Source: Escherichia coli O127:H6 str. E2348/69
GTDB lineage: Bacteria > Pseudomonadota > Gammaproteobacteria > Enterobacterales > Enterobacteriaceae
Assembly (NCBI RefSeq): GCF_000026545.1
Contig: NC_011601.1
Strand: one strand, 5' to 3'
Length of the DNA: 64,000 nucleotides
Shown here: positions 11,372-53,394 of the stretch, piece after piece
How positions within the stretch are numbered: the stretch's first letter is position 1
Layout: each line of letters starts with the position of its first letter
The notes under the pieces: model-generated
Databases searched by the model: none
What the model was told of the DNA's origin: nothing
The model's input: only the letters and a program-made list of their open reading frames with translations
Position numbers and translations under genes: made by a program

Positions 11372-11602
11372 ATATGGATCATTGTGCTGCCGCTGTATCC
11401 CGACATCAGCCCGGAAATTATTGCGATTGCTATCGGTTCCGGTGCGATTGGCTGCACGATCGTTACGGACTCGCTTTTCTGGCTGGTGAAGCAATATTGC
11501 GGCGCTACGCTCAATGAAACATTTAAATACTATACGACAGCGACATTTATCGCTTCGGTCGTCGCTCTGGCGGGCACATTCCTGCTGTCATTTATCATCT
11601 AA
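11372..11602 (+). pseudogene. dsdX: 3' remnant of D-serine permease dsdX (last ~76 codons only)
   Basis: In-frame GntP-type C-terminus (...[37 protein letters not shown]) without a 5' body; the frame is closed by TAA at 11369..11371. Confidence 0.75.
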
Positions 11603-11619
11603 GCGCAAAGAGACGTACT

Positions 11620-12944
11620 ATGGAAAACGCTAAAATGAATTCGCTCATCGCCCAGTATCCGTTGGTAGAGGATCTGGTTGCTCTTAAAGAAACCACCTGG
11701 TTTAATCCTGGCACGACCTCATTGGCAGAAGGTTTACCTTATGTTGGCCTGACCGAACAGGATGTTCAGGACGCCCATGCGCGCCTGTCTCGTTTTGCGC
11801 CGTATCTGGCAAAAGCATTTCCTGAAACGGCTGCCGCGGGGGGGATTATTGAATCAGAACTGGTTGCTATTCCTGCTATGCAAAAACGGCTGGAAAAGGA
11901 ATATCAACAACCGATCAGCGGGCAACTGTTACTGAAAAAAGATAGCCATTTGCCTATTTCCGGCTCCATAAAAGCACGCGGCGGGATTTATGAAGTCCTG
12001 GCACATGCAGAAAAACTGGCTCTGGAAGCGGGGTTGCTGACGCTTGAAGATGACTACAGCAAACTGCTTTCCCCGGAGTTTAAACAGTTCTTTAGCCAAT
12101 ACAGTATTGCTGTGGGATCAACCGGAAATCTGGGGTTATCAATTGGTATTATGAGCGCCCGCATCGGCTTTAAAGTAACGGTGCATATGTCTGCTGATGC
12201 CCGCGCCTGGAAAAAAGCGAAACTGCGCAGTCATGGCGTTACTGTCGTGGAATACGAGCAAGATTATGGTGTTGCCGTCGAGGAAGGACGTAAAGCCGCG
12301 CAGTCTGACCCGAACTGTTTCTTTATTGATGACGAAAATTCCCGCACGTTGTTCCTTGGATATTCCGTCGCAGGCCAGCGTCTTAAGGCGCAATTTGCTC
12401 AGCAAGGTCGCATCGTCGATGCTGATAACCCTCTGTTTGTCTATCTGCCGTGTGGTGTTGGCGGTGGTCCTGGTGGCGTCGCATTCGGACTTAAACTGGC
12501 GTTTGGCGATCATGTTCACTGCTTTTTTGCCGAACCAACACACTCCCCGTGTATGTTATTAGGCGTCCATACCGGATTACACGATCAGATTTCTGTTCAG
12601 GATATTGGCATCGACAACCTTACCGCTGCCGATGGCCTTGCAGTTGGTCGCGCATCGGGCTTTGTCGGGCGGGCAATGGAGCGTCTGCTGGATGGCTTCT
12701 ATACCCTTAGCGATCAAACCATGTATGACATGCTTGGCTGGCGCAGGAAGAAGGCATTCGTCTTGAACCTTCGGCACTGGCGGGTATGGCGGGGCCTCAG
12801 CGCGTGTGCGCATCAGTAAGTTATCAACAGATGCACGGTTTCAGCGCCGAACAACTGCGTAATGCCACTCATCTGGTGTGGGCGACGGGAGGTGGAATGG
12901 TGCCGGAAGAAGAGATGAATCAATATCTGGCAAAAGGCCGTTAA
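11620..12944 (+). pseudogene. dsdA: D-serine dehydratase with frameshift near codon 374 (4-bp deletion)
   Basis: Frame reads ...MYDMLGW then nonsense to TAA 12817..12819; the frame starting at 12741 encodes [22 protein letters not shown]...NQYLAKGR to TAA 12942..12944. Confidence 0.8.
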
Positions 12945-13051
12945 TAACGTTTCAACGCAGCATCACCATCCTTTCCCTGGGTGAGCGATGCTGCGGATGA
13001 CGCAGACTTAAGATTCTGCCGTTTTACCTGCTATAGTCTCCTCTTTTTCCA

Positions 13052-14590
13052 TCACCCAACGCCTTTCGCTGTAAACGGCGGTTTCGCAAACCAAACCAAA
13101 ACCGTAAGTAAGATAAAAGCAATAGCCGCCATACGGAAAATCTCATTTGCAGAAATAGAAAGTGACTGCTGAGTTATTTCATTATTAATTTCATTAAGAA
13201 CTCCTGAAAGCGAACCATAGTATTTATCCATAATTTGTGACGATGAATTAAACACGGGGTTAAATTGATCGATGGTTGCTGTCAACTGACTATGGTGTAA
13301 CGATTCGCGGCGTCCCCACAGTGTCATTGTCAACGACGTACCAACTGATCCTGACAAGGTGCGAAAAAAATTACTCATACTCGAGGCATTGGCAAATTTA
13401 TTATCTGGCAAGCCTGAAAACGAAATCGTTGTTAAGGGTAAAAAGAAACAGGCAACGGCGAATCCCTGAAAAAACTGTGGCAAAATGATGCCTGTAAAAT
13501 CAATCGTTGGCATAAATGTCACAGAACGCCAGTAATAGCAAACCGCATACATCAAAAAACTAAATGTCACCAACAACCGCATATCTATTTTGTTGCCATA
13601 ACGTCCTATCAAAGGTGATATTAATAGCGGCATGATACCGATGGGCGCATAGGCAAGTCCGGCCCATATCGCATTATACCCCATCGTTTCCTGGAGTAAC
13701 TGCGGCATAAGAACTATCGCTCCAGAGTAAAATAAATACGCGCATGTGATACTCACAATACCAATGGTGAAATTACGGGACTTAAACAAACTGAGGTCAA
13801 GAATCGGATTCTCTGAGGTCGACTCCCAAATGACTAAAGAAATCAGAGAAATAACTGATACTACTGTTAGTATTATTATTGTACTCGAGTTGAACCAATC
13901 CAGATCGCGCCCTTTATCAAGCATAATTTGCAAGCCACCAACACCGAGCACTAACAGGGTCAGTCCTGGTAGATTCATTTTGACCGGTGAAGTCTCAGTT
14001 TCTCTTCCTTTAAGTAAGGTTAAGCATAATGTCAGGACGATAATCCCCATAGGGACATTGATTAAAAATATCCAACCCCAGCTAAAGTTATCGCAAATAT
14101 AGCCGCCCAATATCGGCCCACATATCGGAGCGATAATCACGGTCATTGACCATAATGCCAGAGCAAATGTTCTTTTTTCTGGTGGATAATTCCTTAATAA
14201 TAAACTCTGTGACAGTGGAATTAACGGCCCCGCCATTAACCCCTGAACGACTCTAAAAAATATCAGCACATCTAGATTGGTCGATAAACTACACATTAAT
14301 GAAGACAGCGAAAAAAAGGTTACTGAAAGTAAAAATAACCTTAATTCGCCTATTCTTTGTGCCAGCCTGCCGGTAACAGGGATCGCAATGGCATTTGCTA
14401 CGCCAAACGAGGTGATAACCCAGGTGCCTTCGTCTGTTGATGCTCCCAGAAAGCCAGATATTGTCGGTATTGCGACGTTAGAAATAGTGGAATCCAACAT
14501 TTGCATAAACGTCGCTAATGACAATGCAATAGTGACGCACCATAACGTCCCACCGGTTAATGGTGCAGGAGTTGATTTAGTGATTGCCAT
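13052..14590 (-). CDS. emrY: MFS multidrug efflux permease (EmrB family)
   Basis: 512 aa, 14-TMS type; translation and position match emrY. Confidence 0.9.
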   Translation of the reverse strand: MAITKSTPAPLTGGTLWCVTIALSLATFMQMLDSTISNVAIPTISGFLGASTDEGTWVITSFGVANAIAIPVTGRLAQRIGELRLFLLSVTFFSLSSLMCSLSTNLDVLIFFRVVQGLMAGPLIPLSQSLLLRNYPPEKRTFALALWSMTVIIAPICGPILGGYICDNFSWGWIFLINVPMGIIVLTLCLTLLKGRETETSPVKMNLPGLTLLVLGVGGLQIMLDKGRDLDWFNSSTIIILTVVSVISLISLVIWESTSENPILDLSLFKSRNFTIGIVSITCAYLFYSGAIVLMPQLLQETMGYNAIWAGLAYAPIGIMPLLISPLIGRYGNKIDMRLLVTFSFLMYAVCYYWRSVTFMPTIDFTGIILPQFFQGFAVACFFLPLTTISFSGLPDNKFANASSMSNFFRTLSGSVGTSLTMTLWGRRESLHHSQLTATIDQFNPVFNSSSQIMDKYYGSLSGVLNEINNEITQQSLSISANEIFRMAAIAFILLTVLVWFAKPPFTAKGVG

Positions 14591-52309: not shown

Positions 52310-52385
52310 GGGTCGTTAGCTCAGTTGGTAGAGCAGTTGACTTTTAATCAATTGGTCGCAGGTTCGAATCCTGCACGACCCACCA
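52310..52385 (+). tRNA. lysV: tRNA-Lys (UUU)
   Basis: GGGTCGTTAGCTCAGTTGGTAGAGCAGTTGACTTTTAATCAATTGGTCGCAGGTTCGAATCCTGCACGACCCACCA. Confidence 0.95.
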
Positions 52386-52390
52386 ATGTA

Positions 52391-52416
52391 AAAAAGCGCC
52401 CTAAAGGCGCTTTTTT
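52391..52416 (+). terminator. Rho-independent terminator of the val/lys tRNA operon
   Basis: AAGCGCC-CTAA-AGGCGCTT hairpin followed by TTTTTT. Confidence 0.75.
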
Positions 52417-52495
52417 GCTATCTGCAATTTGCGAAATTGCCTGATGCGCTTCGCTTATCAGACCAACTATGTCCGGCAGTTCCCGTGCCTCTCAT

Positions 52496-53394
52496 CTACT
52501 GCGCCAACGCCGCTAGCAGTTTAACCAGCGCGGGCGTCACCTGCTTCGTTTCATAAACAATATATAAGTCTGCCGGGATGCGTTCTTTGAGCGGACGGAA
52601 TATGACACCGGGCCAGTTCATCTGCGCGTAGCTGTCCGCTATCAATGTGATACCAATACCCATACTGACCATGGCGAGTACCGTTTGCGGTTCATTAACT
52701 TCGCGAATAACAACCGGTGAAAATCCCACCTGCTGGCAAACTCGCTGCAAAAAATCCCAGTCAGTGTACACGGGCGGCATTGTAACGAAATACTCGTCAC
52801 GTAGCGCTTCCAGCGGGACGGTGGAAAATGATGAGAGATGATGCTCTTCAGGCATCGCCACCAGAAACGCCGATTCATGCAACCGTAAGCTGGTAAAACC
52901 AGTCGGTGGTTCTGTCGCCATTCGCCAGATCCCGGCATCAAGTTCGCGGCGTTCCAGCAAGGCCATTTGCATCGCAGGCATCTTTTCGCGAAACAGAACT
53001 TCAACGTTAGGATTTTCTCTAAGGAATCGCCGCATAACCGGGCGCATCCGTCCCCACATTGCCGTTCCCACATTGCCGTTCCCACAACCCCGAGTTCAAT
53101 CCGCCCTGCTTCTCCCCGACCTATTTGTTCAACCCGAGCCAATACATTATTTGCATTCACCAGCAATCGACGCGATTCTTCCATCAAGATTTTGCCCGCG
53201 TGTGTCAGTACGACGCTGCGCGAATGGCGAATAAAAAGCTGCGTGCCGAGTTGATTTTCCAGCTCTTTAATATGAATACTGAGCGGAGGCTGAGACATAT
53301 TTAAACGCGCGGCTGCGCGACCAAAATGCAACTCTTCCGCTACGGCAAGAAAATAACGGAGCAACTTAAGATCTGTTCTATATACGCGTTCCAT
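52496..53394 (-). pseudogene. xapR: LysR-type xanthosine operon activator disrupted by a 14-bp tandem duplication
   Basis: Two overlapping ORFs on the same strand share ...GVVGTAMW then diverge; CACATTGCCGTTCC occurs twice in tandem at 53055..53082 inside the coding region. Confidence 0.8.

Follow-up and report, generated by a model that had tools for sequence, protein, structure and literature searches.

A 64-kb stretch of the chromosome of enteropathogenic Escherichia coli (EPEC) O127:H6 strain E2348/69, referred to below as the window, corresponds by annotation to the K-12 interval that runs from argW-dsd to xap. Between positions 11372 and 53394 of the window, three genes of accessory catabolism are broken, each by a different kind of mutation: dsdA has lost a 4-bp repeat unit, fryB has acquired a nonsense codon and xapR contains a 14-bp tandem duplication. 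These lesions had been noted in a preliminary description of the sequence, and base-level alignment to K-12 MG1655 proved its account of all three to be exact. They are pseudogenes already marked in the annotation of a heavily studied E. coli genome, produced with the Prokaryotic Genome Annotation Pipeline (PGAP), and nothing about them is new in mechanism or in system. The genes and their lesions are as follows.

Positions 11620..12944, plus strand: dsdA pseudogene (D-serine ammonia-lyase), 1325 nt against 1329 nt in K-12, flagged by PGAP as 'frameshifted'.
Positions 12735..12742, plus strand: lesion 1, a (TGGC)2 tract from which one unit of the ancestral (TGGC)3 is gone.
Positions 40325..40651, minus strand: fryB pseudogene (EIIB component of a fructose-like phosphotransferase system, PTS), flagged by PGAP as 'internal stop'; it leads the gene string fryB-fryC-ypdF-ypdE-fryA.
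Positions 40493..40495, minus strand: lesion 2, codon 53 is TAG in place of CAG, a coding-strand C to T transition at 40495.
Positions 52496..53394, minus strand: xapR pseudogene, 899 nt long (885 nt in K-12) and flagged by PGAP as 'frameshifted'; the intact gene encodes the LysR-type activator of xapAB.
Positions 53058..53085, minus strand: lesion 3, a 14-bp tandem duplication with GTGGGAACGGCAAT present twice on the gene strand; the ancestor has a single copy.

The rest of this span is intact, as the preliminary description had held. The only further coding sequence (CDS) that PGAP flags within it is a 219-nt remnant of dsdX, and the remaining K-12 orthologues are equal in annotated length, except for yfdX, which is 3 nt shorter and in frame, and yfeC, which shows a 15-nt difference. 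Relative to K-12, the window differs in three respects: the prophage at its left is another one, the genes cscB, cscK, cscA and cscR replace dsdC together with most of dsdX, and the insertion sequence (IS) IS186 is missing at nupC/pdeA.

In dsdA, the reading frame is lost after codon 372, and the new stop codon yields a product of 399 aa, of which 372 are native, instead of 442 aa. At the repeat tract, both K-12 and strain A25 read TGGCTGGCTGGC, and in A25 those 4 bp are the sole difference from the dsdA of the window. The truncated DsdA spans positions 1-368 of the 431 positions of the NCBIfam model TIGR02035, compared with 1-431 for the product repaired in silico. The missing segment is one whole repeat unit of the ancestral run, which is the form that replication slippage is expected to give.

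The fryB stop shortens the product to 52 of 108 aa. This fragment covers positions 1-47 of 85 in TIGR00829 and scores 69.3, below the model cut-off of 76.85. A Dcm-site hotspot was considered as the source of the C to T change and was dropped, as the sequence context is GCGCAGG and not CCWGG.

In xapR, the frame is lost after about residue 109 of 294, beyond the helix-turn-helix (HTH) domain, and the truncated product matches positions 1-111 of 296 in NF007439 with a score of 213.7 against a cut-off of 290. The ancestral gene has one GTGGGAACGGCAAT followed by GTGGGGACGG, a 9/10 repeat that lies 14 nt downstream and shares the microhomology GTGGG. The duplicated 14 nt are precisely the interval between the two ancestral GTGGG motifs, again as slippage would predict. 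Exact-product look-ups of XapR fragments of 255 aa, 191 aa (both as translated and with an M start) and 183 aa found none; the 187-aa fragment is the form that gene callers produce. A separate change was seen in the Logan assembly SRR29200347, in which xapR (about 2680-3564 of the contig) is free of the duplication but has a nonsense codon of its own, S74* (TCA to TAA), on a sequence with 5 mismatches over 3.7 kb relative to the window. Judging from this assembly, S74* is a second, independent knock-out of xapR in the clade.

When the lesions were repaired in silico, each of the three genes regained a full-length open reading frame that passes its NCBIfam cut-off. This result implies exactly one inactivating hit per gene.

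The distribution of the alleles was followed with megablast queries of 40-44 nt that span each lesion, run against 5426 complete E. coli genomes; with such a query, the wild-type allele gives no exact word of 28 nt. Each query matched at 100% in CP059840.2, LT827011.1 and LT903847.1, with the dsdA query matching one O55:H7 strain in addition and nothing else being hit, which makes each lesion rare (3-4 of the 5426). The dsdA query, a junction-specific 40-mer, has four genomes as its hits, namely the E2348/69 records and this O55:H7 strain. The latter, USDA5905 (NZ_CP039837.1), belongs to a csc-positive lineage and shows the identical change from (TGGC)3 to (TGGC)2 on a dsdA allele that differs at 54 of 1325 sites. 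Loss of the unit on so divergent an allele marks the dsdA tract as a recurrent slip site and the O55:H7 change as an independent event. No copy of the xapR duplication on another genetic background was seen with the lesion-specific query among these genomes. Beyond complete genomes, the exact 399-aa truncated DsdA occurs in 35 blocks of the sequence collection, and the ten contigs fetched from among them match the window at 99.95-100% identity over 4-7 kb. Moreover, the xapR duplication was confirmed in seven more assembled contigs, drawn from NCBI, ENA and Logan, and the fryB stop in five (L018-L022).

The E2348/69 record NZ_LT827011.1 (2583214-2647213) matches the full window base for base, and a second E2348/69 genome, CP059840.2, is 100% identical across window positions 11000-56000; the next-closest complete genomes stand at 98.8-99.2% identity. 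All three lesions, whose absence from other isolates of the same strain would have counted against the preliminary description, are present in CP059840.2. A count of three independent complete genomes was tried and rejected, since the strain of LT903847.1 (EPEC1) was engineered from the parent sequenced as LT827011.1, whose own assembly was partly reference-guided.

Sequencing or consensus errors limited to this region of one assembly, which had been raised earlier as a localised consensus-quality problem, are a practically negligible explanation. Indels in short repeats account for two of the lesions, and sites of this class are error-prone for assemblers and for some chemistries; the partial reference guidance of LT827011.1 points the same way. 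Nevertheless, the identical alleles recur in the separately deposited CP059840.2 and in de novo assemblies built from many separate sets of reads (SRR1931811, SRR1577772/84/85, SRR23557172/4/6, the ERZ7615xx set, ERZ1023040, GCA_000442085.2, GCA_001267335.1 and GCA_902505465.1), while close relatives assembled likewise show the wild-type state. The recurrence of the lesions across separate records supports the other possibility put forward at the outset, a genuine decay of accessory catabolic functions.

The occurrence of three lesions in one stretch had first been presented as a pattern. For the background, six further 50-kb regions of this chromosome (300 kb) were read in the PGAP annotation, with transposase and phage fragments and deletion remnants left out. 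In this sample, a frameshift or an internal stop interrupts five genes of otherwise full length (yahM, nleB, an EspL2-family gene, a PTS EIIC gene and a PstS-family gene), giving a density of about one comparable pseudogene per 60 kb, or about 80 genome-wide by extrapolation. A 42-kb span is thus expected to hold 0.70 such genes, and the probability of at least three is 0.034 for one pre-chosen span; in a scan-statistic simulation, a 42-kb span with three of them turns up somewhere in the genome with a probability of about 1.0. A significant local cluster or hotspot was rejected on this background density and on the differing ages of the lesions, and because of both, nothing points to a local process. 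The density of the three lesions is simply that of the genome around them, as far as the 300-kb sample represents it.

The three lesions are not of one age. The collection has truncated FryB in 294 blocks and truncated DsdA in 35, and some of the five further contigs with the fryB stop are 99.96-100% identical to the window and yet are not E2348/69. Two large contigs decide the sequence of events. UFZD01000005.1 (GCA_900448265.1) combines the fryB stop with an intact XapR whose sequence is exactly the repaired one. In UGGC01000001.1 (GCA_900450255.1), the fryB stop occurs alongside the csc genes, the dsdX stub and an intact DsdA, and over 6.3 kb only one mismatch and the 4-bp gap separate this contig from the window. 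The presence of the fryB stop in near-identical relatives with an intact dsdA or xapR means that this stop is the older lesion. Around xapR, the relatives L031-L033 show only the 14-nt gap and 0-1 mismatches relative to the window over 5.9 kb. The dsdA and xapR lesions of this lineage were found only on contigs that are 99.9-100% identical to E2348/69. Accessions of the AIF* form are presumably those of the DEC collection of O55:H6 EPEC1 strains.

From these comparisons of assembled genomes, the order shown is that the csc swap, described below, came first, that the fryB stop then arose in an ancestor of a wider clone, and that the dsdA and xapR lesions followed. The suggestion of a strain-specific decay therefore survives in part: it applies to the dsdA and xapR lesions, which are confined to E2348/69-type contigs, but not to the fryB stop, which is common to the wider clone.

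The D-serine locus was already altered before dsdA was hit. The genes at its left part are listed here.

Positions 6270-7517, minus strand: cscB, intact, with no pseudogene flag from PGAP.
Positions 7579-8502, minus strand: cscK, intact according to PGAP.
Positions 8718-10151, plus strand: cscA, intact according to PGAP.
Positions 10159-11154, minus strand: cscR, intact according to PGAP.
Positions 11384..11602, plus strand: 3' remnant of dsdX, 219 nt, annotated by PGAP as 'partial, missing N-terminus' and left by the replacement of dsdC and dsdX with csc genes.

The csc genes thus adjoin a 3' stub of dsdX, which is followed by dsdA. No dsdC is annotated from the attR site (5816-5830) to the dsdX remnant, whereas K-12 has dsdC directly after pawZ. 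This is the allele in which csc genes stand in place of dsdC and dsdX; the exchange, in which cscBKAR took the place of dsdC and part of dsdX at argW, a recombination hotspot, has been published (PMC4366372, PMC7486766). The junction segment 10950-11750, which contains the 5' end of cscR, the dsdX stub and the start of dsdA, is covered at 80% or more in 2658 of the 5426 complete genomes. The 219-nt stub is annotated in 8/8 other genomes inspected, which include A25, O55:H7 and O157:H7 and come from distant phylogroups. The D-serine/sucrose swap is an old, widespread and published allele. The frameshift in dsdA came afterwards, as a secondary hit on a gene whose activator DsdC was already gone. 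The initial proposal that the strain traded D-serine use for sucrose use was right in that the swap is real; it was not made by this strain, as the same junction is found in those 2658 genomes.

The published phenotypes agree with this view of the locus. All B2 EPEC lack dsdCX (Connolly et al., PMC4366372), and wild-type EPEC (printed as 'EC234/69') does not grow on D-serine unless dsdA is supplied in trans (PMC4366372). The failure of EPEC to grow on D-serine is already explained by the loss of dsdC and dsdX. In enterohemorrhagic E. coli (EHEC), DsdA is a silent enzyme that is reactivated by csc deletions which bring the cscA promoter close to the gene (O'Boyle et al., PMC7486766).

The truncated dsd locus of EHEC O157:H7 EDL933/TUV93-0, to the extent that the original work (Jahreis 2002; Moritz & Welch 2006) is represented in the papers that cite it (PMC4366372, PMC7486766), is like that of E2348/69 in the order of the csc genes, in the 219-nt dsdX remnant and in the position of dsdA. 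The likeness extends to the D-serine-negative phenotype, which has also been published for EPEC and is rescued by dsdA in trans (PMC4366372). The difference is that dsdA of O157:H7 is intact and can be reactivated, whereas in E2348/69 it is frameshifted and so is not the intact but silent gene of EHEC. Because of the frameshift, an escape by promoter capture of the EHEC type should fail in E2348/69 unless the TGGC unit is regained. The gene is intact, at 1329 nt, in 7/7 other csc-positive genomes sampled. Its ratio of nonsynonymous to synonymous substitution rates (dN/dS) is 0.02-0.13, and within a phylogroup the csc-positive and dsdCXA-positive alleles are near-identical, so this divergence mostly predates the swap.

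The reading that best accounts for these results, held with a probability of about 0.82, is that genes for accessory catabolism in the E2348/69 lineage lost their function through three unlinked and independent mutations, which arose spontaneously in the ordinary way and were retained as this gut pathogen can dispense with the functions. With the csc allele already in place, a C to T change created fryB Q53* in an ancestor common to the near-identical isolates. Later, one TGGC unit was lost from dsdA and 14 bp were duplicated in xapR, both probably by slippage during replication. In xapR, a nascent GTGGG end that re-paired on the upstream copy would duplicate exactly 14 nt. The proximity of the three would then be a matter of chance, at background density.

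The consequences can be predicted gene by gene with reference to the intact neighbours.

Positions 34399..40303, minus strand: fryC, ypdF, ypdE and fryA (annotated as ptsP), intact and of K-12 length, downstream of the fryB stop.
Positions 53646-54902, minus strand: xapB, full-length CDS.
Positions 54963-55796, minus strand: xapA, full-length CDS.

Without DsdC, dsdA would already have been unexpressed, so that its frameshift would be cheap and probably brought no measurable change. The fryB stop would disable a PTS of unknown substrate, and a polar effect on fryC, ypdF, ypdE and fryA is possible. XapR keeps its HTH domain and loses its effector-binding domain; given the function for which XapR is named, the intact xapA and xapB are therefore predicted to be uninducible. 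In the literature searched, neither the xapR nor the fryB lesion of E2348/69 is mentioned, and no phenotype data on xanthosine or the fry system were found.

Several points weigh against this reading of independent and dispensable losses. The neutrality of the three losses is itself inferred. An intact dsdA in all seven sampled csc-positive genomes, together with the low dN/dS, which for the most part reflects divergence older than the swap, could mean that the gene is still useful in csc-positive strains, and S74* in a related strain hints at selection for the loss of xapR instead of drift. Neither LT827011.1 nor LT903847.1 is fully independent of the reference, so it is CP059840.2 and the de novo read assemblies that provide the independent evidence for the alleles. 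Finally, the dsdA and xapR lesions could stem from early laboratory passage and not from nature. According to this last explanation, the loss of 4 bp in dsdA and the gain of 14 bp in xapR arose while the 1969 isolate was being stored or passaged in the laboratory, ahead of its distribution, and the wild outbreak clone would have lacked them. Both young lesions do occur only on the contigs closest to E2348/69, and relatives that differ by 0-1 mismatches in about 6 kb do not have them. All E2348/69-type records examined, however, carry both, and the carriers GCA_001267335.1 and GCA_902505465.1 have separate accessions and are possibly different clinical isolates, which leaves a laboratory origin rather unlikely.

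Adaptive loss, with positive selection for at least one of the knock-outs in the EPEC1 clone, perhaps because wasteful or harmful expression in the infant gut was thereby avoided, is quite improbable. It would draw on the separate inactivation of xapR in two close relatives (by the 14-bp duplication in E2348/69 and by S74* in SRR29200347), on the recurrence of the TGGC loss in O55:H7, on a published argument for selection against D-serine catabolism in strains positive for the locus of enterocyte effacement (PMC4366372) and on a further accessory PTS EIIC gene with an internal stop in the genome. However, mutation bias alone predicts recurrence at a slippage-prone tract, the silent state of dsdA leaves no added phenotype to be expected (PMC7486766), and each lesion is rare among the complete genomes. 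The xapR hints and the broken PTS gene are weak and fit drift equally well. Very doubtful is a broader form of the idea, in which EPEC1 (O127:H6 and its relatives) has been under repeated selection for the loss of XapR, and perhaps for other losses of sugar or nucleoside uptake, with slippage lesions that are precisely reversible and genes that are cryptic but reactivatable. A further idea is that the repeats act as reversible slippage switches and that dsdA and xapR are cryptic genes which can be turned on again; in its favour, both types of lesion can be precisely reverted by slippage and the genes are otherwise undamaged. The tracts, though, have just 2-3 units and lie inside conserved coding sequence common to all E. 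coli, every E2348/69-type contig examined is in the 'off' state with no mixture of on and off among them, and reversion of dsdA alone would give no expression without DsdC, so that such switches are extremely improbable.

Slipped-strand indels at short tandem repeats and tandem duplications templated by microhomology are classic classes of spontaneous frameshift in E. coli. The present cases fit these classes, with one tetranucleotide unit lost in dsdA and the 14 nt between a GTGGG pair duplicated in xapR, both at short tracts in ordinary coding sequence and outside any dedicated hypermutable region. The point-lesion loss of accessory catabolic genes and regulators is also like the accumulation of pseudogenes in the host-restricted enterobacteria Shigella and Salmonella Typhi; in E2348/69, however, the density is low (about one per 60 kb outside mobile elements) and the stretch bears no sign of IS-driven or wholesale decay. 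Phase-variable contingency loci based on simple sequence repeats resemble these genes in that the frame changes by gain or loss of a repeat unit. The resemblance ends there, as the tracts have 2-3 units, the assemblies show no length heterogeneity and the genes are metabolic rather than surface-exposed, and dsdA and xapR are thus hardly loci of this kind.

For metabolic modelling of E2348/69, D-serine deamination, the fry PTS and xanthosine-inducible xapAB should be treated as absent. The D-serine defect has two layers, the absence of dsdC and of a full-length dsdX being joined by a frameshifted dsdA. Furthermore, the lesions provide markers at two levels: the fryB stop tags the wider clone, and the dsdA and xapR lesions tag E2348/69-type genomes. 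All three could serve in the authentication of lineages or stocks.

Two further observations concern PTS genes. In UGGC01000001.1 (GCA_900450255.1), an insertion sequence that encodes a 457-aa DDE transposase lies at 750-2123, between glk and fryB and directly upstream of the broken fryB. A second broken PTS was found outside the window, an accessory EIIC gene with an internal stop at NZ_LT827011.1 3141556-3143136, which clusters with genes for a PRD-domain regulator and a MalY/PatB-family protein.

Some deposited assemblies have an unusual structure around the lesions. In ERZ761545, ERZ761555 and ERZ761557 (ENA), segments of dsdA or xapR identical to E2348/69 are fused to unrelated genes on one or both sides. 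The contigs from ERZ761545 and ERZ761555 (L007, L011) show a single-base gap relative to the window, which in L007 is a 1-bp deletion at about 13010, in the spacer between dsdA and emrY. The fused contigs of the ERZ7615xx set may be chimeric assemblies or may come from rearranged derivative strains.

The left end of the window contains the following features outside the catabolic genes.

Positions 1-5830: right arm of a prophage, with genes for a Rad52-family recombinase, an HNH endonuclease, a single-stranded DNA-binding protein (SSB), an anti-RecBCD protein, an Ea22-like protein, a DUF551 protein and TorI.
Positions 5816..5830, plus strand: attR-type partial copy of argW, CTGCAGGGGACACCA, which forms the right end of the prophage, adjoins the csc cluster and exactly matches the 15-mer of K-12 pawZ.

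Within the prophage arm, the CDS at 3979-4107 is flagged as partial, and a short DUF4942 fragment lies at window positions 5984-6190, between attR and cscB. Towards the right of the window, the tandem pair of tRNA-Ala(GGC) genes is separated by a spacer (49175-49213) of 39 bp, which measures 6 bp in EPEC1 (LT903847.1), a loss of 33 bp. The source paper of EPEC1 gives the designed deletions as the sole differences from the parent strain, and the shortened spacer is either an unreported spontaneous deletion or a collapse in assembly. The junction between nupC and pdeA (45412-48952) is uninterrupted in the window, at the place where K-12 has IS186C.

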